From assembly GCA_964013535.1 (NCBI GenBank), contig CAXGWS010000004.1:22854-86853 (forward strand): a stretch of 64,000 bases of DNA. The letters run 5' to 3'. This DNA is from an uncultured Candidatus Poseidoniales archaeon. GTDB taxonomy: Archaea; Thermoplasmatota; Poseidoniia; Poseidoniales; Poseidoniaceae. Numbering within the stretch: position 1 is the stretch's first letter; each line of letters starts with the position of its first letter. The translations under genes and the position numbers were made by a program. The notes under the pieces were generated by a model that was not told where the DNA came from, did no database searches, and saw only the letters and a program-made list of their open reading frames with translations. Below, in pieces: positions 1-25,227 of the stretch.

Positions 1-1908
1 TCAGCAAATCCAGAAATTTGGCAATCCTCCTCTACAGGCCCAACCGAAGCAGGAGGGTTTGGAATATTTGCCGTAGCGCCGGGAGTATCGATTAATTCTG
101 CCAAAGCGGATGGGTTTGATGATTCAATGAATAATGCCTTGCGCGCATCAAGCGGGACGAGTATGGCCACACCAATCGCTGCCTCATTTACTGGAATTAT
201 TCAGCAGATGGTAGAACAAGGTTGGATCCTGTCTTCTAATGAAGTCGTCAACCAGTACAACTTGTCAACAATATCACCTTCTTGGTCTGCATTGCCCAAC
301 GAAAGTATTGGGCTTGGCGAGGGTTTTACTCCTTCGGGCCCGTTACTCCGTTCCTTGCTTGCAATAGCAACTAAGGACATTACCCAAGATGAGGGATACT
401 TTGTCAGAAATAATGAGGCTGGATGGGGTGTATTGTCTCTTGAGGAGTTGATTGACTTCGGCCAACTTGAAACATCTTTAGGCCAAGAGAATTTAACACC
501 GACTTCAAACGTATGGATTCATGACAGTTTTCGCAACTCGTTTGATGTTGGTGAGTGGTTAACCGAGCGTATTGTTGCATCATCGACAGGAAATATAGCC
601 GATAGCCCATGGAATGGAGGAGGTGCAGAAGGTCCATTTTTGGGTACTGGTGAGGTATGGACTAAACGATTGGTGCCAACTCAAACCGAAGATTTTGAAG
701 TTGTTTTATCGTTCGCTGCAAAACCAGAACCGTTCTTAGTTGACGATTTACGACTAGTGGTGAAGTTGTCTGACGGTGATATGGCATCGGGAGGCGTCTA
801 TGATGCTGATGGATTTTCATCCATATTTTCTAACGAAAGTCTCGAGTTCGCCAACATACAGAAATCAAACGAAACAAGTGTCTCGGTGAAAATACCAATG
901 AGTGAATTGGTCGATATATCGTGGTTAGATATAGAAGTACATGCTAACTATGTTGCTCCTGGAAATACTCCCGGAAGTGTTGGTGTTGACGGCGACAGAG
1001 TGGGTTTCGCATTAGCGGCAAAAGGCGTTATCAGAGATTCTCAGAATTGGGAAGATTCGGATGGAGATGGTATTGCTAACGCTGTTGATCTATGTCCAAA
1101 TCAACATTCACAGAATTATGATTTAGATTTAGATGGGTGTCCTGACGATACTGATGGAGATGGTATTGATGACCAATATGATCTTTGTCCATCAATTAAT
1201 TCCCAAGGCTACGACAGTGATTTAGATGGTTGCATAGATGATTCGGACAGTGATGGTGTGGGTGACAATATTGATTTGTGTTTCACAGAAATAATATCTC
1301 TAGAGTACCCTGTTGATAATGCCGGCTGTCGTCCTATCGATTCCCCAATTTCGATTGCTCAAATTGATATTTTTGGCTTAGAAAATCAAATATGGTCTTC
1401 TGAATTAGATGTTCGATGGAAGATAATTGATGATGATTTTGACCCGTATTTGACCGGAGCTAGAATAATGATTAATCAAACAGGAAACAACTCATTCTTC
1501 CCGATTTCCACCTGTACCGCCCAAGACATTACTATCGAGGGTGATGTGCACAAATGCTCGTGGAATGTTATTGATGATTTACCGATATTTGATGTGACTG
1601 GTTTTGGCTTACATGTCCAGTTTTTCGCCCAAAGCCTCAATCAATCGCCTGAAGCAAATAACGCGTTGATATACTATGATTCTGAAATTTATTTTTCCGT
1701 TGATAACTATGATAATACTCTTACTACTGATAATTCAAATCCCGGTGCTGCAAATTCTGTGCGTTCGCTCGGATGGGGAATAATCACAATTTTTTCAATT
1801 GCGTTAATCTGTCGTAAATTGTGGTCGGTGGCTCAAGAAAAAGACGTTCGTTATGAAAATGGGAATGATTTGATAAATAATCCCTTTATTGACCAAGAAA
1901 CCGAGTGA
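1..1908 (+). CDS. S8 (subtilisin-like) serine peptidase, 5'-truncated by the window edge, with thrombospondin type-3-like Ca-binding repeats and a C-terminal membrane anchor
   Basis: Frame is open from base 1 (SSTGPT...AVAPGVSINSA). Catalytic-Ser motif GTSMATP; DxDGDG..D.CP repeats; hydrophobic C-terminal segment (LGWGIITIFSIALIC) followed by a basic stop-transfer. Confidence 0.85.
   Translation, partial: SANPEIWQSSSTGPTEAGGFGIFAVAPGVSINSAKADGFDDSMNNALRASSGTSMATPIAASFTGIIQQMVEQGWILSSNEVVNQYNLSTISPSWSALPNESIGLGEGFTPSGPLLRSLLAIATKDITQDEGYFVRNNEAGWGVLSLEELIDFGQLETSLGQENLTPTSNVWIHDSFRNSFDVGEWLTERIVASSTGNIADSPWNGGGAEGPFLGTGEVWTKRLVPTQTEDFEVVLSFAAKPEPFLVDDLRLVVKLSDGDMASGGVYDADGFSSIFSNESLEFANIQKSNETSVSVKIPMSELVDISWLDIEVHANYVAPGNTPGSVGVDGDRVGFALAAKGVIRDSQNWEDSDGDGIANAVDLCPNQHSQNYDLDLDGCPDDTDGDGIDDQYDLCPSINSQGYDSDLDGCIDDSDSDGVGDNIDLCFTEIISLEYPVDNAGCRPIDSPISIAQIDIFGLENQIWSSELDVRWKIIDDDFDPYLTGARIMINQTGNNSFFPISTCTAQDITIEGDVHKCSWNVIDDLPIFDVTGFGLHVQFFAQSLNQSPEANNALIYYDSEIYFSVDNYDNTLTTDNSNPGAANSVRSLGWGIITIFSIALICRKLWSVAQEKDVRYENGNDLINNPFIDQETE
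1054..1284 (+). repeat. Three tandem TSP3-like protein repeats inside the subtilase
   Basis: DSDGDGIANAVDLCP / DTDGDGIDDQYDLCP / DSDSDGVGDNIDLC, with intervening YDxDLDGC units. Confidence 0.8.
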
Positions 1909-2021
1909 CTGAGTTGGTATTTGCCGGTTTTTTTGTTAGTTTTATTGCGTTTATGACAAGGTGAACCTTGAAGTTCAATGTCGTTTTGGGTCAAATATCC
2001 CCAAGGGGGATGGTGAATATT

Positions 2022-3026
2022 ATGAGTGACCGCCTTTATGTTGGAATTGACCTAGGAACATACCAATCTACAATCTCTTCGAGTGCTGGTGCAAGCCACA
2101 CTATTGAGACTATTGTAGGTAGACCGAAAGACCCTGTCGCAAGGAATTTCCTTGGACGTGATGTGCTATTTGGCAACGATGCGTTGAAGAATAAGTTGGC
2201 TTGTAATTTATACCGGCCAATGGCCGCCGGTGTTGCCCAAGATGATGAGGCAAACTTGGCAGCTGCTAAGGCATTCGTTTCTCATCTACTAGAAACAGTA
2301 GATCCTGAAGAGTATGACGAAGTTTTCGGAGTCATATGCTCTCCAAGCCACGTCTCGTTCACTGATAAGTCAAACCTTGTTGCAACACTCAGAGGCCAAG
2401 TAAACGCAATCATGGTCGTCACAGAACCCTTTGCAACAGCGTATGGGATTGAAGAAATTGCCGGTTCAATTGTTGTTGATATTGGTGCTGGAACCACTGA
2501 TATCGCTCGTATTCACGGCACCTTCCCTTCCGATGAAGACCAAATCACAATCCAAGAAGCTGGCGATTGGTTAGACTTGGAACTTATGGGATTAGTCGAA
2601 AAGAAATACACTGGTGCTCAAGTTACCAAAGACATGGTACGTCGCTGGAAAGAAGCATCATCATATGTCGGTAGTGAAACAAAAGAAGTCATGGTAGAAC
2701 TTTCAGTAGAAGGCAAGAAACAAGTTGTTGACATTGGCGATTTAATTGTCGAGGCTTGTGAATCTATTGTGCCGCTTATTGCCAATGCGATAAAGAAGAT
2801 TGTTGCGACAGCAGACCCAGAATATCAACCAGTCCTCAGAAACAACATCATTCTCTCTGGTGGCGGCTCTTTAATCGACGGTATTGCTGCAAGAATGGCA
2901 GAGGAAATTTCTGATATCGGTGATGTCAATGTTTGGTGTGTTGAAGATGCAATCAATAGCGTTGCTAACGGCGCACTAAAACTCGCCGGTGAAATGCCAG
3001 ATGATATGTATACTGCAATTAACTAA
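2022..3026 (+). CDS. Actin-family ATPase, MamK/salactin-like
   Basis: Actin-fold motifs GIDLGT, TEPFATAYG, VDIGAGTTD and LSGGGS. Segments resemble MamK (VGxPKD, EDQITxxxAGxxLD, PEYQxxxxxNI). Start moved to ATG 2022, which follows GGGGGATGGTGA. Confidence 0.85.
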   Translation: MSDRLYVGIDLGTYQSTISSSAGASHTIETIVGRPKDPVARNFLGRDVLFGNDALKNKLACNLYRPMAAGVAQDDEANLAAAKAFVSHLLETVDPEEYDEVFGVICSPSHVSFTDKSNLVATLRGQVNAIMVVTEPFATAYGIEEIAGSIVVDIGAGTTDIARIHGTFPSDEDQITIQEAGDWLDLELMGLVEKKYTGAQVTKDMVRRWKEASSYVGSETKEVMVELSVEGKKQVVDIGDLIVEACESIVPLIANAIKKIVATADPEYQPVLRNNIILSGGGSLIDGIAARMAEEISDIGDVNVWCVEDAINSVANGALKLAGEMPDDMYTAIN

Positions 3027-3079
3027 AGTTAGTTGTGGATTTTGAATTTAGGTCGACAATACGGCCTAATTGACCCAAA

Positions 3080-4390
3080 ATGATTGGGAAAGTTCAAGAG
3101 TGGTTGATTACCGATAGGCGTCGTATGACAGTCGGCTCTTCGTCACCCAGCGGGATAAAACGTGTTGGTGATACCTCATCTGAAGAGCGAGCCGCATTAG
3201 AAGGAATGTTGCAAGGTTACCCTGTTGAGCAACTTGTTGAGGAAGTGTTAATCGCTTGGGACGAGTTGGCAAAAAGAAATGATGAGATGGTTTCGGTCAA
3301 ACAGCGGTTGCGCGTACTTGAATTGGATTTGGCGGAAAGAGAGGATATGGTCGCACCAGAAGTCGCTCGAATGAATGATTTAGAAACTGAGCTTGAAGAG
3401 CGTAGAAGTCAAATGGTTCACCTTGAAAGATTATTATCCGATGCTAGGCAGGACTTAGCCGCTCAGCAGTCTTCATTATCAAATGAAGAAAAAATACGCC
3501 TTGAAGACGAAGTTGATGCTTTGAAAGGTCTGACCTCTGAACAAGATGAAGTAATAGGTGAAATGGAGGGGAGAATTTCTCAAATGGTTGAAGCGCTTGA
3601 GAGGGCTGCTGATGCTGGTTTAACCTCTGTCACGGCTGACGAGGTAAGGAATTTAAAGTCTCAAGTTGACAATATGACCAAACAATACGAGGTCGAAGCG
3701 TCAGCAAATAAGGCACTTGAGGAAGAGCGCCAGCGACTACGAGATATTGCAGATCGCTTAAGAGGCCTCTTAGATGCCCGTGATAACAGATTAACTGAGC
3801 TTGAAGAACAATTGGAGCGCGTTATGCAGGGACCACGTTCGGTCTCTGCGGAACATGATTACTTAGTCGAGCAAATTGAAGAATTAAAACGCAGGCTGCT
3901 TGAAAGAAATCGAGAATATGAATCCCTACGTCGAAGGGAAAGACGCCTACACAGTGATGTCTTTGAAAGAGATGAAAGAATACAACAAATGTCTCTAACA
4001 ATGAGTGATTTGGAGTCTGCACTTCAAGATAGGACTGCTGAATTAAGAGAGTTGGAAAATATCAGAGAGACAATGTCAAACGAATTAGACTCGGTCCGAA
4101 GAGGGGAGCGTACTCGAGAAGTCGTTGGAAGAGTATTTGCCGATTCATTGTCCTTAGTTAGAGGCCATGATGAGCGTGAAATGATGAGAGAGGCTTATGC
4201 TAATTCTCCAGATGTTGAAAGGAAGTTAGCAACACCAGAACTTGACGATATGGCAAGTTTGGCTGAGGGTGGTAGAGTAGAACTCAATGTTGAAGAAACG
4301 GTAATTGAGCCTGGAATGGAAGTAGATACTAATCGTCCATCTGCTCCAGGTGGCAGTGGTGATCCTGTTATCTTCGAAGATGAAGATTGA
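3080..4390 (+). CDS. Long coiled-coil protein with an acidic C-terminal tail, function unknown
   Basis: About 290 aa of E/R/L-rich heptad-like sequence; no Walker A motif; 53 bp downstream of the actin gene on the same strand. Confidence 0.75.
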   Translation: MIGKVQEWLITDRRRMTVGSSSPSGIKRVGDTSSEERAALEGMLQGYPVEQLVEEVLIAWDELAKRNDEMVSVKQRLRVLELDLAEREDMVAPEVARMNDLETELEERRSQMVHLERLLSDARQDLAAQQSSLSNEEKIRLEDEVDALKGLTSEQDEVIGEMEGRISQMVEALERAADAGLTSVTADEVRNLKSQVDNMTKQYEVEASANKALEEERQRLRDIADRLRGLLDARDNRLTELEEQLERVMQGPRSVSAEHDYLVEQIEELKRRLLERNREYESLRRRERRLHSDVFERDERIQQMSLTMSDLESALQDRTAELRELENIRETMSNELDSVRRGERTREVVGRVFADSLSLVRGHDEREMMREAYANSPDVERKLATPELDDMASLAEGGRVELNVEETVIEPGMEVDTNRPSAPGGSGDPVIFEDED

Positions 4391-4497
4391 ATATTGGCGA
4401 ACCGCCTTTTTCAATGGCGTTAGTTTATACAATAATTCATATCATTGGGTATTTGGTTGTTACATCTAGTTGCCAATGGCCGCCATGGGGTTTGGAA

Positions 4498-6105
4498 GTG
4501 GGAAAATATAGGTTTGATATTGGTAATCTCGTTATGTGTAACCTCGGAGAAAGGGGTTGGAAACTTGGTAGGGTTATCGCCCTCGATTACCGTGAAAGCA
4601 ACTGGGAAGATGGCGATGTTGCCCCATACCAAGTGGCCCTTGAAGAAGACCGCACACTGATTTATGTCCCAATCGATGATGCCCGCTTCTGTCGACAAGC
4701 AACGGAAGAAGATTTGAATATTCTAATTAGAAAAGATGCCTTAGCACGTAATGATTCCAAAATTGATAAATCTGGAGAAGTGGATTTAACCAATAATCAG
4801 CTAATATGCAACGAATCAATTGATTTTTCTAACTACAGAAACGGGCGTTGTGATTGCTGTAACGATTGCCCAAAGGCATGGACTTATGCCGAATTGTACA
4901 GTGAGCATTACCGTTGTGCAACCCGCAATGGTTTGAAGATTACAAGATTCGAAGATAACCTTGGAACTATATCTGTTGGAGATAACATAAACCATGAGCG
5001 TAATGAGTCGATACCTTGTGAAAGTGGTTTCCTCCAAGCGCCTACTTTGGTAAGGTTGCCTCCAGGGATTATATTCTCAGATGATGGTTCCATACAAGGA
5101 GAGGTATTATATGACCCGCATCGAGAAGAAAATTATGATGTTAGATTCGTCGCAGTAAGTACATTGATGTGGGATTCTGCTGCTGTTGGGATTGTTCGTT
5201 ATGAAATTTCATTCAGTGTTCAAAATAACCGCCCTCCGGCTGAATTCGATAAACAAGCTTTCGAATCTGACCAAGCGAAATCTCGTAAGGTTGCTAGAAA
5301 ACTCGTTGATTCATTGAATAGTGATTGGTTGAAATGGGAAAATGGCACTTTAGATAATTTATCCACTTGCCAAACCATGGGAAATACCCTGCGTGAGTTG
5401 AGGGTTTTATTGGAAGACAATCCAAGACTGGATAACGGTAAGTGGTGGGGCCACCTTGGTGGCTATCACATGAATGTTCACAAATTGTTAGATAATGCCC
5501 TATTTGAATGTGAATTATACTTAGGGTATGCGCTAACCTTTGGTGATGATGATGTCAAGTATTATGCCGAGCAGAATCTAAAAGGTTGCTACAATAAACG
5601 ATTATTGGAAGCTGCGCGATTCATGTGGATGGATGGCATAGAGTATATGTTACAGGAACAATGGACTCAAGCAATAGAACTGTTTCGTCTCGCAGCCAAA
5701 AAGAAGGAGGGTTGGGGATGGGCGGTCAATTATGGTGATATTTGGTTAAGTGAGGCTGTAGCAACGATAATACAGAATTGTGAAATTGATGGTGTTGGCT
5801 TAACTAAAGAAGTATTAGAAAGAGTAAACCAACTCATTTTGCAATGTGTGAAGAGAACAAATGATTCAAGGGTTTTTGGCTCTTATGGCCATCCTTGGGC
5901 TAGTGAAATAGAGGTTGCTCTCAAATCATATGGTGAATTGACTCAAGAAAGCAAGGATACCGAAAATTGGCTGAAAGAATTGAAGGCCCGGACTGTTTAT
6001 TGGTGCTCCCAAGTATTAGCCGGCATGTCACCATTTCCCCCACAAGAGAGGCCGCGAAGGGAATCTGCTGAAGCACTTATCGACCGCTTACCAAAGCACA
6101 ACTAA
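4498..6105 (+). CDS. Hypothetical multidomain protein (SH3-like N-terminal module, Cys cluster, Ig-like segment, helical C-terminus)
   Basis: ORF 4387-6105, with a probable GTG start at 4498. N-terminal YRFDIG..V.C..G..GW..G.V....Y.E..W......PYQV.L module; CDCCNDC cluster; LPPGIIFSDDGSIQG resembles He_PIG Ig repeats. Confidence 0.6.
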   Translation: MGKYRFDIGNLVMCNLGERGWKLGRVIALDYRESNWEDGDVAPYQVALEEDRTLIYVPIDDARFCRQATEEDLNILIRKDALARNDSKIDKSGEVDLTNNQLICNESIDFSNYRNGRCDCCNDCPKAWTYAELYSEHYRCATRNGLKITRFEDNLGTISVGDNINHERNESIPCESGFLQAPTLVRLPPGIIFSDDGSIQGEVLYDPHREENYDVRFVAVSTLMWDSAAVGIVRYEISFSVQNNRPPAEFDKQAFESDQAKSRKVARKLVDSLNSDWLKWENGTLDNLSTCQTMGNTLRELRVLLEDNPRLDNGKWWGHLGGYHMNVHKLLDNALFECELYLGYALTFGDDDVKYYAEQNLKGCYNKRLLEAARFMWMDGIEYMLQEQWTQAIELFRLAAKKKEGWGWAVNYGDIWLSEAVATIIQNCEIDGVGLTKEVLERVNQLILQCVKRTNDSRVFGSYGHPWASEIEVALKSYGELTQESKDTENWLKELKARTVYWCSQVLAGMSPFPPQERPRRESAEALIDRLPKHN

Positions 6106-6138
6106 TCACTGTTTTAGCAACCTTAGGTTGTATCGGAT

Positions 6139-6951
6139 TTAGTTACCAAGCACCGAGCAAATAGATGATATTCGGTCTGATAAGTCTGCCAAATCCGCAG
6201 CATCTTCCGTCAAAGTTCCCGTGACTATCCAATCTGCCCCTGCATCAGCAGCAATCTTCGCCTGTTCTGCAGTTCTTATGCCGCCACCAACAATTAGGGT
6301 AAGTCCTTCAGTGCTTCGAGCAGAGCGTATCAGCTCTGGACTTACTTGTCTGTCAGCGCCGCTTCCTGCTTCGAGATATAATAGTTTGAAGCCATACATT
6401 GCGGCTGTCAATGAATAAGCCTGCACCAGTTCTGTATCATTTGGCATGATTAATTCGGCACTACCGACCTCTCCTACTTTGCCTCCAGGGTGGCACACAA
6501 GGTAACCTGTAGGCAGCGCATCGACGCCAAACTTAGCGAGATATGGCGCTCCGCGCACCTGTTCGCCAACCAAAAATCTTCGATCTGTTGAATTCATTAA
6601 CATCATGAAAGTTATTGCGTCTGCTGCGGGAGAAAGCGCATGTGAACCTCCTGGGAACAAGACTACTGGTACCTTCCAGTAATCTTCGTCGCTATCCGGA
6701 GATTGACTGGCTGCGAAGGCGCGTAATTCGAGACTTTCTTGTATTGCAACGCATGTAGCATGTACTTCTTCATCAGGAGTATCTGTTGAACCACCTACGA
6801 AAATCATTGATGAGCCTGCCTCAATGGCGACACATGCTCGGTCTGCTGCGACTTGTGGGGATTGTTTATCTGGGTCAATTAACGTAATGTGTCTAGTATG
6901 ACCACGTTTTTTTGTGACATAAGACAGAATGGTTTCATCATCCCTACGCAT
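6139..6951 (-). CDS. Geranylgeranylglyceryl phosphate (GGGP) synthase, PcrB family group II
   Basis: HITLIDPDK, FVGGST, VVLFPG, GYLV..PGG.VG.VG, YLEAGSGA, IVGGGIR and GADWIVTG motifs. Confidence 0.93.
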   Translation of the reverse strand: MRRDDETILSYVTKKRGHTRHITLIDPDKQSPQVAADRACVAIEAGSSMIFVGGSTDTPDEEVHATCVAIQESLELRAFAASQSPDSDEDYWKVPVVLFPGGSHALSPAADAITFMMLMNSTDRRFLVGEQVRGAPYLAKFGVDALPTGYLVCHPGGKVGEVGSAELIMPNDTELVQAYSLTAAMYGFKLLYLEAGSGADRQVSPELIRSARSTEGLTLIVGGGIRTAEQAKIAADAGADWIVTGTLTEDAADLADLSDRISSICSVLGN

Positions 6952-7049
6952 GCCAATCGTCTACTCCTTCAACTCACAACGCATATTTATTGCGGAGGTT
7001 AATTTGGTTAAGGTGCCAATCACACAGTTATCAATAAGCACCGTTTGGA

Positions 7050-8828
7050 ATGGTTATGGGCGAGATTGGGCCTTTCAGAAGACTGTTGTCTCACATGAAA
7101 GGGCATAGAAAGACTATCCGGCTTGCATCATTTTGTTCAGTTACTAACAAAATTTGGGACCTAGCTCCCCCGCTACTTATTGGCTTGGCTGTAGATGTAG
7201 TGGTGCTAAAAGAGGATTCATTTCTTGCGGGGTTGGGGTATTCTGACCCTTGGAATCAACTGATATTGCTGTCTGTATTGACATTTTTAATTTGGGGGCT
7301 TGAGTCACTGTTCGAATATTTCTATGGGGTTTTGTGGCGAAATCTAGCACAAAGCGTGCAGCATGAGTTACGACTTGATACCTTCAACCACGTTCAAAAG
7401 CAAGGTATGGGTTGGTTTGATGAACGGCAAAAAGGAGATATTCTTGCCATCTTAAATGATGATATCAATCAATTAGAAAGATTCCTTGATAAGGGTGCTA
7501 ATGATCTATTACAAGTATCAACTACTGTGATAGTGGTCGGGGCAGTATTCTTATTCATCTCTTGGGAAGTTGCACTTTTAGCTATTATTCCAATACCTCT
7601 AATCGTCTGGGGTTCGTTCAAATATCAAAGAAGCCTTGAACCAAAATATGCTGACGTTCGTAATGCTGCGGGCAAGATGAACGCATTGCTTGAAAATGAC
7701 TTATCGGGTATGTCAACAATTCAATCATTTACGTCCGAAGAAATTGAAGTGAATAGGGTTGAAAAATTGAGTAATGATTATCGCGAAGCAAACCGGAAGG
7801 CTATCCGTCTTTCGGCAGCGTTCACGCCACTAATACGAATGGCGATTCTCTGTGGTTTTACTGCCACATTACTTCTAGGCGGGTGGTTTACTCTCGAAGG
7901 AGAGTTAGCAGTTGGTGCATATTCCGTTTTGGTATTCATGACTCAACGGTTGTTGTGGCCACTAACAAGATTGGGTGAGACATTCGACCTATATCAAAGA
8001 GCGATGGCGTCGTCAACAAGGGTCTTGGATGTCCTAACTTCTGAGATTGAGATTAAGCAAGGCGATTATGAACCAACAAGAGATACCATCGAACAGAGTG
8101 ACATACAATTCAACGATATTGTATTTGCATATTCCAAACGAGATAACACATTTGATGGGTTGTCTTTGACTCTAAAGGCAGGTAAAACTACTGGTGTTGT
8201 TGGATCGACAGGAGCGGGTAAAACAACTCTAACAAGGTTAATGTTGAGATTTGCCCAGCCAGATTCAGGTTCTATTACTTGGGCTGGAAGAGGTATTGAA
8301 GATTGGTCTCTAAAGCACCTGAGATCATCAATTGCTTTAGTGGAACAGCACATCACCCTCTTCCCAACCTCGATTCTTGAAAATATCAGATATGGAAATC
8401 CAGATGCTGATGATGAGCAGGTACATCGCGCCGCAGAGATTGCAGAGGTGACGGAGTTTGTCAAGACTCTACCAAACCAGTGGGAAACCATGGTTGGTGA
8501 GGGGGGATATCGGTTGTCTGGTGGACAGAGGCAGCGATTGGCAATAGCAAGAGCAGTGTTGAAGGATGCCCCTTTGCTTATCCTAGACGAAGCAACCTCT
8601 GCTGTGGATAATGAAACCGAAGCTTCGCTCCAACGCTCAATTGATTATGTGTCAAAGGACCGCACTACGATAATTATTGCTCATAGGTTATCGACCATAC
8701 GTAATTGTGATACGATATTAGTTATGGATAATGGTGGTATTGTTGAGCGAGGCAGTCATAGCGAGTTGATTACAAACGGTGGTATTTACCATCGATTATG
8801 GAAGGTGCAAACTGGTGAAAAGTCGTAA
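7050..8828 (+). CDS. ABC exporter, fused permease and ATP-binding domains (MsbA-like)
   Basis: N-terminal TM domain; Walker A GSTGAGKT; signature LSGGQRQR; Walker B LILDEATSAVD; H-loop IAHRLST. Confidence 0.95.
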   Translation: MVMGEIGPFRRLLSHMKGHRKTIRLASFCSVTNKIWDLAPPLLIGLAVDVVVLKEDSFLAGLGYSDPWNQLILLSVLTFLIWGLESLFEYFYGVLWRNLAQSVQHELRLDTFNHVQKQGMGWFDERQKGDILAILNDDINQLERFLDKGANDLLQVSTTVIVVGAVFLFISWEVALLAIIPIPLIVWGSFKYQRSLEPKYADVRNAAGKMNALLENDLSGMSTIQSFTSEEIEVNRVEKLSNDYREANRKAIRLSAAFTPLIRMAILCGFTATLLLGGWFTLEGELAVGAYSVLVFMTQRLLWPLTRLGETFDLYQRAMASSTRVLDVLTSEIEIKQGDYEPTRDTIEQSDIQFNDIVFAYSKRDNTFDGLSLTLKAGKTTGVVGSTGAGKTTLTRLMLRFAQPDSGSITWAGRGIEDWSLKHLRSSIALVEQHITLFPTSILENIRYGNPDADDEQVHRAAEIAEVTEFVKTLPNQWETMVGEGGYRLSGGQRQRLAIARAVLKDAPLLILDEATSAVDNETEASLQRSIDYVSKDRTTIIIAHRLSTIRNCDTILVMDNGGIVERGSHSELITNGGIYHRLWKVQTGEKS

Positions 8829-20566: not shown

Positions 20567-21796
20567 TTAATTTTGAAAAATGTTGTGTAGTTTTTCCGCT
20601 TGTTGCTGTGGTGAAAGTTTCAATTCTTCGATTCTTTTTCTACCAAACTCGGTCCATGATTTTCGAATCTCAGGTAACTTTGCTTGTGATAAGGCTTGAT
20701 GCCAACTTCTCACATCGTTGCGTTCGAGTAATCGACCACATTTTCCATCAATAATAGAATCTCTGAAGCCACCGTCGTTAACAAAAATGGCGGGGGTTCC
20801 AATTGAAAATGCCTCTATTGGACTCAAGCCAAATGGTTCTTTATGAGCCATACTTACAACCGCCAATGATTGTTGGATTAATATCGATAATTGCTGAGAA
20901 GATAATCTTGGTGCAATCCAAAGTTCAACTCCATTATCATCTGCATGGGATCTTAAGATTTGAAGCGATTCTGTAGTTCCGCCGCCTACATGAGCAACGG
21001 ATATTTTGCTGTCTGATAACATAGAAATCACCTCCATGGTGCCTTTTGCCCAGTTAGCGGTACCGATAGTAACAACATAATTCATTTCTATTGAGTTGGT
21101 AAAGGGGTTCTCGACGCCGTTTATGTTATCTGAATATTCTTTAGAATCGACGCAAGGATGTAAGTATGAGCAGTCGATTCCATAGACTTGTTTAATCCGT
21201 GCTGAAGTGTATGAGGAATTACCAGATATTACTGATTTTTTCCGGTTTGAGAACTTCTTGACAATTTTCAAATCGTTTTTCCTTCCTTTAGAAAGTAGTA
21301 TATTTGTTAATATCTTAGGTCTTTTCAAATTCCCATATAAGTCCCTGTGTAATGAATCCTCGTGATATCCTCGATGTGGTTCTAACAGATGTAAGTGCGC
21401 TTTTTTATCATAAGGGATCATTTCTAAAAAACCCAAATACCCATCGCCGCTAACAACATGAAAATAGTCGAATTTGGGTATGTCTGATATTAAATTCGGA
21501 CAGCTCTTCCACGCTTTAATCGATGTTGTATGGATTTTATCGAGGATTTGTGATAAACTGGTGTTAGGTGGTTGCCATGGTTGATTTGGTTGGTATAATC
21601 TGATTCCATTTTTATTACAAACGGATTCTAAATCTTGGCATGATGATAGTGTTGCAACTGATATGTCGTACCAATTTGTCAAATGAGGTAATACGCGCAA
21701 TAAATCTCGCTCTGCACCCCCCATCCTCGATATGATGCCTTTGGCAATTAGTAGCGATGGTTTTCCACTAGGCACATTTGTAGGGTGGGGTTTCAA
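20567..21796 (-). CDS. Glycosyltransferase family 4 (GT-B fold)
   Basis: GGAER N-terminal motif; EPFGLSPIEAFSIGTP donor-binding motif. Confidence 0.88.
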   Translation of the reverse strand: MKPHPTNVPSGKPSLLIAKGIISRMGGAERDLLRVLPHLTNWYDISVATLSSCQDLESVCNKNGIRLYQPNQPWQPPNTSLSQILDKIHTTSIKAWKSCPNLISDIPKFDYFHVVSGDGYLGFLEMIPYDKKAHLHLLEPHRGYHEDSLHRDLYGNLKRPKILTNILLSKGRKNDLKIVKKFSNRKKSVISGNSSYTSARIKQVYGIDCSYLHPCVDSKEYSDNINGVENPFTNSIEMNYVVTIGTANWAKGTMEVISMLSDSKISVAHVGGGTTESLQILRSHADDNGVELWIAPRLSSQQLSILIQQSLAVVSMAHKEPFGLSPIEAFSIGTPAIFVNDGGFRDSIIDGKCGRLLERNDVRSWHQALSQAKLPEIRKSWTEFGRKRIEELKLSPQQQAEKLHNIFQN

Positions 21797-21941
21797 CTAT
21801 ATTTCAACAACTGCACAATGTATGAAAAATTGTTGAAATAATGGAGGATATAGGTTTATATTGTAGACTGGGAAGAAAATAACAATACAAAATTATACCC
21901 GCTTTGGAAAGTAGGTTCGTGTAATAGGAAGTTGTGGAAGA

Positions 21942-22667
21942 ATGACTAGGCTAGTGTATATTGGAAACGATAAATGGCACAGTTGTTTCGATTCGTTGAT
22001 TAAAGATGAAGGTTTAGAAATCGTTCATTCCTTCATACCAAATGATTCATTCTACCTGAAGAATATGTGTGAGCAAAATAATTTAAATTACACATTAACG
22101 GAAAATGTAAACCATAATTTTGAAATTATCTCGACGTTGGATTTTGATATTTACTTGGTAATAGGCCACCCATTTCTACTTGATGAAAGGCTACTAAATC
22201 ATAAACAAGGAATTGGTTTCCATCCCTCACTATTACCAAAGAGGCGAGGGCGGGCACCCATAAATTGGGCCATTATTGACGGACTGAAAGAATCGGGAGT
22301 TACCCTTTTTTATCTGGCTGAAGGAATCGATAATGGTGGTATAATTTTTCAGGAAAAGTTCGCTATTAATGACCAGGATACTGCCGCGATTTTGATCAGG
22401 AAGATTTGTGCAATTTTGGTTAACAATTTGAAAAATATTCTGCATAGTTGGCCTGAATTACAAGTTATTCAACAAGACGAAAAAGAAGCAACTTATACAA
22501 TTAAACGAAATCCTAGCGATGGTGAGATAACCAGAGATATGAGTGCAAAGGATGCAGAAAGGATGGTTAGAGCGCTTAACGGACCTTACCCATCGGCTTA
22601 CATCACTATGAATAATGGAGAACGACTATACATTAACGAGGCGTCAATAAATGAGTTCGAAGAGTAA
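21942..22667 (+). CDS. Formyltransferase (Fmt/ArnA-N-terminal-like), probably a sugar N-formyltransferase
   Basis: GFHPSLLPKRRGRAPINW, SGVTLF and GIDNGGI motifs; C-terminal RALNGPYPSAY; sits inside a glycan cluster. Confidence 0.8.
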   Translation: MTRLVYIGNDKWHSCFDSLIKDEGLEIVHSFIPNDSFYLKNMCEQNNLNYTLTENVNHNFEIISTLDFDIYLVIGHPFLLDERLLNHKQGIGFHPSLLPKRRGRAPINWAIIDGLKESGVTLFYLAEGIDNGGIIFQEKFAINDQDTAAILIRKICAILVNNLKNILHSWPELQVIQQDEKEATYTIKRNPSDGEITRDMSAKDAERMVRALNGPYPSAYITMNNGERLYINEASINEFEE

Positions 22668-23436
22668 TTTTCCCTATACCCCATTCTCATATGATGAATA
22701 TAGACATATTCTACAACAATTGTTAGATAACTTACCGATATTAGACTATGCTGAGATAAATAATGAAACTGGTAGTTTCTGTATCATTAGGCATGATGTT
22801 GAATTTTCTTTAGAAAGAGCTTTGAAACTAGCAATTATTGAACATGAAATGGATGTTAAGGCTAGTTATTTTATTCAACTTAACAACAGTACATACAATG
22901 CAATATCTCATGAAAGTCTTAACATAATAAGAAAAATTAGTGAATTAGGACATAAGATTGGTATTCATTTTTCTCCAAGTAGTAGCAACGTAGATTTAGT
23001 TAAACAAGAGTTTTACTTTTTCAGAGATTTGTTTGAGAATAGATTGAATACGACAATTGACCGTTTCTCATTTCATAGACCCAATTTAAATCCACAATTA
23101 TTACAAAATAACATAAAAATTGACGGTGTGATAAATGCTTACGGTGATTTATATTTCGAATATTTCGATGGTAATGTTCCAAAAAATCCGGCGATAAAAT
23201 ATATTTCTGATTCAAATCATCAGTGGAAGTACGGTCATCCATTAGATGTAATTGAATCTGATTGTAAAAAAGTTCATATCTTAATACATCCATTTTCTTG
23301 GTCAAAGATTGGAGGGGATAATTTGGCTAATTATCAGTCTTTATTGGAAGAAAAAAATAATAGTTTAATGATTTCAATTAATTCAGAAATATCAAATTTT
23401 CCATTTGATGAAATAATGAAAAATAATGATATTTGA
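22651..23436 (+). CDS. Polysaccharide deacetylase-like (NodB/CE4-related) protein
   Basis: RHDVEFSLERAL, ASYFI, GHKIGIHF, FSFHRP and LIHPFSW motifs, typical of deacetylase-like proteins in glycan clusters. Confidence 0.65.
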   Translation: MSSKSNFPYTPFSYDEYRHILQQLLDNLPILDYAEINNETGSFCIIRHDVEFSLERALKLAIIEHEMDVKASYFIQLNNSTYNAISHESLNIIRKISELGHKIGIHFSPSSSNVDLVKQEFYFFRDLFENRLNTTIDRFSFHRPNLNPQLLQNNIKIDGVINAYGDLYFEYFDGNVPKNPAIKYISDSNHQWKYGHPLDVIESDCKKVHILIHPFSWSKIGGDNLANYQSLLEEKNNSLMISINSEISNFPFDEIMKNNDI

Positions 23437-23447
23437 ACAGTTTAAAT

Positions 23448-24287
23448 TTAGTTATGAAAAATTATCCCATCATCACCATGTCCTGAATTAAACATTTGTT
23501 CGAGTGTGGCAACGCCAACAGTGATTGGGTATGTAGAATCCTTTGATGGAATGGTGAGTTGGGTCAAATGTTTTGGTATGTTGTCGACAAAATCTGTTAA
23601 AGTAACACCTGCTACATTAGTTATGTGATGGGGGAGAAATTCAACAATTAGGGTGTTTGTATTTGAGAGAATTTCTTTCATCCCCCGCATGGCAAAATAT
23701 TCTGAACCTTCTATATCTATGAGTACTAGATCAAAATTTTTGTTTGAAAGATATGAATCGAGTGAATAGGCTTCTACACCTATAACCTCTGGATTGTCAT
23801 ATGTATACATGTAGTTATTGTTTACTGGGACTCTTTTACTGCCGCCAGAATTGACTGTATTCAACTGAAATTGTATTATCTCTTCCTTTTCACTTGCGGC
23901 TATATTATGGGCAACAATGTTTGAAACATTATTTAATTTTATATTCGTTTCAAATAGTTTGAAATTATTTGGGTTTGCTTCTATTGCAGTTACTTCTGAA
24001 CATATTTTAGCGACTGGTATTGCTAAGGAACCAATATGAGCACCAACAATCAATACCTTAGAATCATTGTCAATATAATTTGATATTCGATTGATTTCGT
24101 CGATTCCATACTCGCCTTTTGTCCTTAGTTTAGCGCCTACTTCAAGATCTGCGGCGTCAACAAGAAAGGTCCCGTTTTTTGTGTTTACAGTTAGTGCCGA
24201 AACATTACCATCAAGGCGTTTTTTTAACCGTTTAGATTTTCTATTTTTCAAGAAAAAATTTACTCGCCAATAAAGCGATTTAAGCAT
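23448..24287 (-). CDS. FkbM-family methyltransferase
   Basis: VGAHIG SAM motif, IEANPNNF and LIDIEGSEY motifs. Confidence 0.88.
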   Translation of the reverse strand: MLKSLYWRVNFFLKNRKSKRLKKRLDGNVSALTVNTKNGTFLVDAADLEVGAKLRTKGEYGIDEINRISNYIDNDSKVLIVGAHIGSLAIPVAKICSEVTAIEANPNNFKLFETNIKLNNVSNIVAHNIAASEKEEIIQFQLNTVNSGGSKRVPVNNNYMYTYDNPEVIGVEAYSLDSYLSNKNFDLVLIDIEGSEYFAMRGMKEILSNTNTLIVEFLPHHITNVAGVTLTDFVDNIPKHLTQLTIPSKDSTYPITVGVATLEQMFNSGHGDDGIIFHN

Positions 24288-24705: not shown

Positions 24706-25227
24706 ATGCTAAAACGATTAGTTGTCTTGCTTGTATTCGCAGTCACAATGTCTGGAGATATTGGTCTGTTGCAGGATGAAGGAGAAGTACACACTGTTAC
24801 AGTAGATGGTTTTGGCACAAATATTAGGTTCGTCCCTGATACTTTAACAATAAATGAAGGTGACACTGTTAGGTTTCTTTGGAGTGGTCAGTTATTACCA
24901 CACAATGCTATTGAAGTAAATGAGTTGTTCAATTCTGGAGACGCAATGAGAAATGTTGACTATACATACACATTCAATTATACTCAATCTGGAGTGTATG
25001 AGTTTTACTGTGAGCCTCATAGAGACCTTGGAATGCTTGGTCAAATTACCGTTAATGATGTACAATTAAACAACACCACTGTAGAAACTGGGATTGAAAC
25101 TAAAAATGATGATGTGTTAAATCAAAATGATTCAAAAATTAGTACGAATTTACTATTGGCCGCTGGTGTATGTGTTATTGGTTTGATTTATTTTAGAACA
25201 AGAATTGATGATATTGCTAAAATTTAA
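24706..25227 (+). CDS. Plastocyanin/halocyanin-like type-1 blue copper protein, membrane anchored
   Basis: Signal peptide; PHNA His ligand; YCEPHRDLGM Cys/His/Met ligands; C-terminal TM helix. Confidence 0.9.
   Translation: MLKRLVVLLVFAVTMSGDIGLLQDEGEVHTVTVDGFGTNIRFVPDTLTINEGDTVRFLWSGQLLPHNAIEVNELFNSGDAMRNVDYTYTFNYTQSGVYEFYCEPHRDLGMLGQITVNDVQLNNTTVETGIETKNDDVLNQNDSKISTNLLLAAGVCVIGLIYFRTRIDDIAKI

Follow-up and report, generated by a model that had tools for sequence, protein, structure and literature searches.

A conserved actin and coiled-coil gene pair in the archaeal order Poseidoniales: a candidate two-part cytoskeletal module

A stretch of 64,000 nucleotides from an uncultured Candidatus Poseidoniales archaeon (Poseidoniaceae; GenBank assembly GCA_964013535.1, contig CAXGWS010000004.1, positions 22,854 to 86,853 of the forward strand), hereafter the window, carries a gene for a MamK-family actin-like ATPase followed on the same strand by a gene for a long coiled-coil protein. 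This gene pair is the subject of the present study. The family of the host, Poseidoniaceae, corresponds to Marine Group IIa (MGIIa), and Thalassarchaeaceae corresponds to Marine Group IIb (MGIIb); both are families of the order Poseidoniales. The surface ocean is rich in Marine Group II archaea, which are uncultured and whose cell biology is nearly blank; no paper mentioning an actin system in these organisms was found in the literature searched. The pair described here is real, specific to the order, and hitherto unstudied. It is a probable module, with a putative function and a putative interaction between its two products.

The two proteins

The actin gene (2022 to 3026, plus strand; 334 amino acids) was delineated from the list of open reading frames (ORFs), family models, and structure alignment. 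Its ATG at 2022 is preceded by a Shine-Dalgarno-like GGTGA at 2012 to 2016, the sequence and spacing of which are kept in relatives. The product matches the NCBIfam MamK model NF040964 over residues 5 to 333 (339.6 bits; E=1.7e-101), by far its best family (next are BeeR at 214 bits and MreB at 79 bits), and the closest solved structures are those of MamK (5JYG/5LJV; E=5e-64, residues 3 to 330). Motifs of the nucleotide site (phosphate-1, GIDLGT; phosphate-2, DIGAGTTD; adenosine, SGGGS; and catalytic glutamate, TEPF) align with those of MamK 5JYG. By sequence, the protein is thus an actin-fold ATPase of the MamK family whose nucleotide-binding motifs are intact. Its score does not reach the curated cut-off for the MamK subfamily (400 bits), and no mam genes indicative of a magnetosome cluster were found in the stretches scanned. 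Membership in the ParM family (15.8 bits versus a cut-off of 417) or the crenactin family (14.7 bits versus 630) was rejected.

The window's actin type, termed paralog 1, is 81 to 98% identical within MGIIa and 68 to 74% identical to its MGIIb counterparts; paralog 2 is a second MamK-like actin of Poseidoniales, encoded at another genomic site. In a search of 1.84 billion representatives, the next relatives beyond its own 50% cluster lay at 43 to 48% identity and comprised Planctomycetota-type MamK-like proteins, paralog 2, and long metagenomic proteins. Neighbour-joining analysis grouped paralog 1 from both families (99% bootstrap), paralog 2 (73%), and the fused forms found among the metagenomic proteins (100%), leaving the relations among the three groups unsettled. 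Because the MamK family is mostly bacterial, it is likely that an ancestor of Poseidoniales acquired the actin.

The downstream gene occupies 3125 to 4390 on the plus strand. The original prediction correctly described an actin ORF and, after it on the same strand, a long coiled-coil ORF with its end at 4390; it placed the start of the latter at 3080, giving 436 amino acids and a spacer of 53 bp. That start does not hold. The codon at 3080 is ATA or ATT in most of about 80 relatives, several of which have an in-frame stop before the next methionine, and it is with the methionine at 3125 that the protein starts in about 80 species representatives, as well as in most clusters of the databases (421 amino acids long). 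Since 3125 is the start common to all relatives, the protein has 421 amino acids and a head of about 33 residues, and the spacer measures 98 bp.

The predicted architecture of head, rod, and tail was otherwise confirmed. A crude heptad scan placed 54% of residues over threshold, versus 1% in 20 shuffles, and located the coiled coil at approximately residues 46 to 326. The helices of an AlphaFold2 model built from 31 sequences, down to 45% identity (mean pLDDT, 79.6), span residues 34 to 163, 171 to 234, and 240 to 359, with an additional short helix at 18 to 29, and the rod is broken at AGLTSVT and QGPRS. The first of these non-helical breaks (residues 164 to 170; 3614 to 3634, plus strand) lies between rod helices 1 and 2, and 31 diverse sequences show no variation at A164, G165, L166, T167, S168, A171, E173, V174, R175, and L177 in and around it. 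The N-terminus and the tail from residue 360 are predicted to be disordered. The whole protein is acidic (isoelectric point [pI], 4.56), as is its tail (residues 360 to 421; net charge -13, pI 4.05), and its sole net-basic patch lies inside the block 241 to 293 (residues 250 to 280; pI 10.6).

The rod is under strict constraint. Across 114 sequences, down to 45% identity, there are zero indels in residues 20 to 356, and length variation is confined to residues 1 to 20 and 357 to 407. Blocks at residues 22 to 48, 58 to 79, 143 to 177, 203 to 293, and 327 to 348 are near-invariant between families. The most conserved rod block, residues 241 to 293 (SAEHDYLVEQIEELKRRLLERNREYESLRRRERRLHSDVFERDERIQQMSLTM; 3845 to 4003, plus strand), was defined by column identity in both families, and within residues 241 to 270, 87% of columns are at least 90% identical in both. 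A conserved C-terminal peptide (4346 to 4387, plus strand) closes the variable-length disordered linker; it reads PGGSGDPVIFEDED in the window, an MGIIa example, and PGGTAPATMIDIDDDPE in an MGIIb example, and in the 307 family members compared it follows the pattern PGG[ST]-x(3-5)-hydrophobic pair-acidic run. Averaged over all pairs of 78 MGIIa species, the distance is 0.225 for the coiled-coil protein, 0.228 for the nearby ABC transporter, and 0.288 for the nearby GGGP synthase (GGGPS). Judged from these comparisons, the conservation is enzyme-like and unusual for a coiled coil. MGIIb orthologues are 47 to 56% identical and 383 to 388 amino acids long. Fragments at 61 to 69% identity from the search of representatives were mostly frameshifted pieces, one of which (P0186) led to the MGIIb orthologues.

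Database searches placed the protein in no known group. Pfam, NCBIfam, PADLOC, and PHROG gave compositional coiled-coil matches only, a PDB sequence search gave nothing, and Foldseek with the AlphaFold2 model gave nothing under E=0.6. As far as its sequence can tell, the coiled-coil protein is a member of a family without an earlier name. As originally predicted, it is not an SMC protein and has no ATPase motifs: a search for a Walker A motif found none, and SMC models scored 35 to 38 bits, far under their cut-offs of 567 to 729. Identity as ASRP (22 bits versus 300) or Rad50 (at most 17 versus 1000) was likewise rejected, all of these matches being limited to coiled-coil arms. As far as the searches reach, a defence or viral module was also rejected; the only pointers were PADLOC JetC (25 bits, to its coiled-coil arm) and tape-measure matches, all weak, and no relatives were found in IMG/VR viral contigs. 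In public records, the actin is annotated as "hypothetical protein" or "MreB," and the coiled-coil protein as "hypothetical protein" or "chromosome segregation ATPase."

Linkage and a shared upstream element

Synteny of the pair holds across Poseidoniales, with order and strand kept in both families. The coiled-coil gene follows the actin gene on the same strand in all 141 loci that reach far enough (124 MGIIa and 17 MGIIb, each from a species-level genome), and the greatest separation of the two genes in any locus is about 3.2 kb. The neighbours of the pair are genes for an S8-like protease, GGGPS, an ABC transporter, and a rhodopsin-like membrane protein, of which the ABC transporter is syntenic with the pair in MGIIa. 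Within the MGIIa neighbourhood, the actin/coiled-coil junction is the most stable, being interrupted in 1 of 122 loci, versus 32/108 for coiled-coil/GGGPS and 5/99 for GGGPS/ABC. Both genes are confined to Poseidoniales as far as the searches reach. Poseidoniales-type actin/coiled-coil pairs were also seen in bins labelled as bacterial (L002, in a record titled Microthrix; L095, Rhodobiaceae; L098, Salipiger; and L196, Verrucomicrobiales), as was Poseidoniales paralog 2 (L150, Yoonia); these are most likely binning errors.

The two genes also have a sequence element in common. Upstream of the actin gene, GGTGAACCTTGAA lies at 1960 to 1972 on the plus strand (wider conserved form, AAGGTGAACCTT[GC]AA, at 1958 to 1972), about 50 to 60 nucleotides 5' of the ATG, and 64 non-redundant upstream regions, drawn from both families, preserve it. 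The coiled-coil gene has GGGAAAGTTCAAG upstream, at 3086 to 3098 on the plus strand and 27 to 39 nucleotides 5' of the start, with the order-wide form G[GT]GAA[AG]GTTCAAG. This spacer element is conserved as nucleotides and not as protein. Its core, GAARGTTCAAG, is found on the plus strand just 5' of the coiled-coil gene in 140 of 236 loci, nearly always once, with two extra matches, and it is unique in the window. It stays with the coiled-coil gene when other genes intervene, as they do in the MGIIa locus L092 and in MGIIb. In MGIIb, the actin element is GGTGAACCTTCAA and the coiled-coil element is GGTGAAGGTTCAA, and both have the form of a TGAA-NN-TTCA palindrome.

Regions upstream of the coiled-coil gene account for 113 matches to a degenerate pattern covering both elements, GKGAANNTTSAA, and those upstream of the actin gene for 94; the rest of the 1.47 Mb of Poseidoniales sequence has only 18, which is about chance level. 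Since this pattern was defined post hoc, an unbiased comparison of position weight matrices (PWMs) from the two upstream regions was added. The best 12-column match was this element in each family, and it beat 300 of 300 column-permuted nulls. Elements of the TGAA-NN-TTCA type were absent from neighbouring genes and from paralog-2 loci, a shorter pattern, GAANNTTCAA, was not enriched in the window (8 matches versus 5.8 expected), and 27 upstream regions from the window gave no clear pattern for a general promoter consensus. A search of Rfam with the leader and element of the coiled-coil gene returned nothing relevant. We read the element, from its sequence and distribution, as a putative operator or special promoter common to both genes.

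The leaders of the two genes may also form RNA structures. In the probable actin leader, a hairpin (ATCCCC-AAG-GGGGAT; 1997 to 2011, plus strand) lies directly 5' of the Shine-Dalgarno-like GGTGA. Paired cells make up 68.8% in a set of 24 diverse sequences, versus 55% in shuffles (0 of 500 as high), and the covariation score is 0.283, versus 0.106 (0 of 500), with 4 of 6 pairs changing on both sides. Between clades the arms show compensatory changes (ATCCCC/GGGGAT, ATCCGC/GCGGAT, GTCCGC/GCGGAC, and ATCCGG/CCGGAT). A crude comparison of minimum free energy against shuffles was weak for this hairpin and gave a small gain for a second one, a candidate in the spacer (AGGTCGACAATACGGCCT; 3050 to 3067, plus strand), whose arms vary between clades yet are complementary by eye. 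The MGIIb counterpart of the spacer hairpin, GGACCCC-ATA-GGGGTCC, remains beside the coiled-coil gene despite inserts, and RNAalifold across the order found no consensus pairs in the leader of this gene. Sequence covariation thus gives moderate support for the actin-leader hairpin, which could affect translation or stability; support for the spacer hairpin is weak.

Partners of related actins and the proposed reading

Coiled-coil partners recur around related actins. In 19 loci from Planctomycetota, Brocadiia, and Omnitrophota, a coiled-coil gene lies directly upstream of a MamK-like actin gene on the same strand (among them L127, L136, L141, L158, L160, L162, L163, L173, L177, L188, and L190). 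The partners in these loci end in G[IVL][SA]S[IV]Y[RK]xVQG[LV]...KKKELMxxIFxANLxLQKK, some of them with an N-terminal GGDEF-like domain. The metagenomic proteins P0123 to P0137 (523 to 1232 amino acids) instead have a conserved N-terminal coiled coil of about 110 residues, a low-complexity linker of 100 to 800 residues, and a C-terminal MamK-like actin; they occur in no GTDB genome, and their best genome match is 49% identical. Both arrangements resemble that in the window in joining a MamK-like actin with a coiled coil, as an adjacent same-strand gene in the 19 loci and by N-terminal fusion in the metagenomic proteins. The Planctomycetota-type loci differ in that the partner lies upstream rather than downstream, has 170 to 350 amino acids, and carries its own C-terminal motif. 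These actins, 36 to 45% identical to the window actin, rank among its nearest relatives beyond the paralog-1 clade, and paralog 2 is closer (45 to 48%). Neither the Planctomycetota partner nor the fused N-terminal domain is homologous to the Poseidoniales protein, nor are the two homologous to each other. By analogy, the recurrence of unrelated coiled-coil partners around MamK-like actins supports a partnership in Poseidoniales.

One short likeness between partners was found. The segment AGLTSVTA[DE]EVRxL at the first rod break (residues 164 to 177; window 3614 to 3655) resembles GISSIYREVQGL of a Planctomycetota partner (L163, 6783 to 6818). This is the top hhalign alignment, yet with P=0.11; a regular expression written post hoc for both motifs had no other match in 1.9 million residues of six-frame ORFs. 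The likeness could possibly reflect a common actin-binding motif, or it could be due to chance. Paralog 2, which occurs in Poseidoniales of both families (e.g., L145, at 5844 to 6860 and 6995 to 8020; L176; and L137), has a neighbour of a different kind. In 24 of 24 paralog-2 loci, a conserved same-strand ORF, of 332 to 373 amino acids where complete, precedes the actin, with gaps of 28 to 135 bp across nine loci inspected closely. Its product has an N-terminal zinc ribbon (CPRCGG...C..C), a C-terminal cysteine cluster, and no coiled coil. To judge from gene order, this looks like a second actin-partner pair.

Characterized systems provide further comparisons. The accessory proteins of Magnetospirillum MamK include MamJ/MamY and McaA/McaB. 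In Desulfovibrio magneticus RS-1, the coiled-coil proteins Mad20, Mad23, Mad25, and Mad26 interact with MamK and Mad28 by two-hybrid analysis (PMC12748827), a network that, by analogy, supports the partnership proposed here. MamK systems and the window locus have in common a MamK-family actin and, encoded close to it, accessory proteins that are acidic and/or coiled-coil; they differ in that the window host is a non-magnetotactic archaeon, no magnetosome genes being found in the stretches scanned, and its actin falls under the MamK cut-off. The Mad set was compared by description, and the window coiled-coil protein matches no known family. Among archaeal actin systems, that of crenactin includes arcadin-2, which binds the actin via a peptide at its C-terminus, and the coiled-coil protein arcadin-4. 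The terminal peptide of the Poseidoniales protein, carried on its linker, would fit binding of the arcadin-2 kind. Crenactin and the arcadins are encoded in the "arcade" cluster of Thermoproteales (PMC5173319), which resembles the window locus in pairing an archaeal actin with adjoining lineage-specific accessory genes. The differences are another actin family and another phylum, with the partners compared by description only.

Based on these observations, we propose, at about an even chance, that the pair constitutes one cytoskeletal module of Poseidoniales, comprising a MamK-type actin and a dedicated, co-regulated coiled-coil accessory protein. The shared private element, the constraint on the rod, and the coiled-coil partners of related actins together support a functional link. 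In such a module, the actin would be expected from its sequence to polymerize with ATP into MamK-like filaments, and the coiled-coil protein would dimerize into a rod of about 45 to 50 nm, the exact length of which would matter. The rod might bind the actin filament or tether it to cargo or to the envelope, with contact made via the invariant blocks (the head at 22 to 48, the break at 164 to 177, and the block at 241 to 293) or via the C-terminal peptide on its flexible linker. The two genes would have separate but co-regulated promoters rather than forming a strict operon. A more elaborate version, which we regard as speculative and rather doubtful, is that Poseidoniales, which rank with the most abundant archaea of the plankton, acquired bacterial MamK-type actins at the base of the order and built a new two-part cytoskeleton from one of them, in which a coiled-coil "ruler" of fixed length and of a new family decorates or caps the filament and both genes answer to a private palindromic operator; the motif G-hydrophobic-S/T-S-hydrophobic ... 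E-V in common with the Planctomycetota partners would then be a common or convergent actin-binding site.

The actin-plus-accessory-protein arrangement is known, and what is new is the partner family and the common cis element. A MamK-family actin with a highly constrained candidate partner provides concrete, expressible proteins for the study of the cytoskeleton in this clade. The pattern of MamK-like actins outside magnetotactic bacteria with mutually non-homologous coiled-coil partners is also extended, and such recurring non-homologous partners bear on the evolution of actin accessory proteins.

Several observations weigh against the proposed module, and most of them bear on its main rival, inherited synteny without functional coupling. 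Across the order, the whole block is collinear, beginning with the S8-like protease, taking in the pair, and ending with GGGPS. With the flanking genes syntenic as well, including the ABC transporter in MGIIa, adjacency may itself be inherited synteny and is weak evidence alone. Unrelated genes break up the actin/coiled-coil junction in 7 of 16 MGIIb loci; they encode a DUF4190-like membrane protein, a plastocyanin-like protein, and products of unknown kind. In the MGIIa locus L092 two genes are inserted, for a multi-pass membrane protein and a 228-amino-acid protein without a known function. The pair is probably not a tight operon, given the separate upstream element of the coiled-coil gene and the unrelated genes inserted on its 5' side. 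A mirror-tree analysis was rejected as evidence of co-evolution: the partial r for actin and coiled-coil protein was 0.747, and that for the adjacent, functionally unrelated GGGPS and ABC transporter was 0.689, nearly as high, so that the signal is attributed to linkage. No known actin-binding protein is homologous to the coiled-coil protein, hhalign gave a probability of <1% between the latter and either the Planctomycetota partner or the fused domain, and the common element could represent a special type of promoter and not an operator. The two genes could therefore be mere neighbours, with the coiled-coil protein serving an independent structural or scaffold role and the elements representing a promoter class. 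We consider this possible and somewhat unlikely, given that the element is private to the two genes in 1.47 Mb of Poseidoniales sequence, that their junction is the most stable in MGIIa, that related actins recurrently have coiled-coil partners, and that both genes appear equally narrow in phyletic range.

Two further alternatives assign the coiled-coil protein a more specific role. In the first, which we find improbable, it is a nucleotide-free polymer like an intermediate filament (IF), of the crescentin or coiled-coil-rich protein (CCRP) type, that the actin either places, as MreB does for crescentin, or has no relation to. IF rods typically have an invariant length and conserved rod-end blocks, and the Poseidoniales protein has an invariant rod length, highly conserved blocks at the rod ends, and a head-rod-tail layout with conserved breaks. 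Crescentin and other CCRPs with MreB, as well as tropomyosin on actin, resemble the pair as fixed-length segmented rods beside an actin-family filament former, by analogy only. However, crescentin has no sequence relation to the window protein, which has no match to Pfam Rod_CreS; the weak crescentin-rod match in one relative (76% identical) scores 14.7 bits versus a cut-off of 100 and is compositional, so the crescentin-like membership suggested earlier fails. A terminal peptide on a variable linker would also seem more like a partner tether than an IF tail. The other alternative is a ParMRC-like DNA segregation machine, in which the coiled-coil protein would be a DNA-binding adaptor joining a chromosomal site to the filament, perhaps via the basic patch at residues 250 to 280. 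The archaeal actin salactin has a reported role in chromosome partitioning. It is treated alongside DNA-segregating actin homologues (PMC10746226), and a conserved basic stretch (KRRLLERNREYESLRRRERRLH), a conserved palindromic element adjoining both genes, and an order of actin first and partner second, as in parM-parR, are in keeping with such a machine. ParM-ParR-parC, AlfA-AlfB, and Alp7A-Alp7R likewise have an actin followed by a same-strand partner gene, with a conserved DNA element adjoining; however, the partner in these type II plasmid partition systems is a small ribbon-helix-helix DNA binder and not a 421-amino-acid acidic coiled coil, and the window locus is chromosomal, kept across the order, and without repeat arrays. 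No DNA-binding domain was matched in Pfam or NCBIfam, the low score to the ParM model argues against a ParM-type actin, and the element occurs once per gene, with no centromere-like repeat array seen. The candidate origin that had been placed about 23 kb from the pair, as suiting a segregation role, also found no support: the ORFs at 20.5 to 32 kb include no Orc1/Cdc6, the region has no convincing origin repeats, and the sole origin-like signal is a turn of cumulative GC skew near 27 kb. We consider a segregation machine very unlikely. Of the original prediction of an actin with a dedicated coiled-coil partner, the partnership itself gains support from linkage, the common element, the rod constraint, and the related actins, whereas the ParR-like adaptor, the crescentin model, and the origin and segregation role do not.

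Flanking genes and the 20-32 kb region

The upstream neighbour of the pair (127 to 1908, plus strand) encodes a large protein kept across the order, and its ORF probably extends past the start of the window. At its N-terminal edge the product weakly matches subtilase (S8), and it also has aspartate-rich, thrombospondin type-3-like repeats and a hydrophobic C-terminal segment. Downstream, a 572-amino-acid ORF (4387 to 6105, plus strand) sits in the slot that separates the coiled-coil gene from GGGPS, a variable one with inserts in 32 of 108 MGIIa loci. Its true length is at most about 538 amino acids, counted from where homologues start aligning. It was found only in the window, L005, L009, and L040, contains cysteine-rich stretches, and has no match in Pfam, NCBIfam, PADLOC, or PHROG.

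The ORFs at 20.5 to 32 kb include those for glycosyl-, formyl-, and methyltransferases and, unrelated to these, a beta-CASP nuclease, a tRNA-synthetase-like protein, and peptidases. A low-GC stretch (0.33 to 0.38) in the interval from 20 to 28 kb, at 20567 to 24287 and 24706 to 25227, with genes for a glycosyltransferase, a formyltransferase, and an FkbM-type methyltransferase, is probably a surface-glycan island. Adjoining it is a gene for a plastocyanin-like copper protein, of the same family as the insert between the pair in the MGIIb locus L207.

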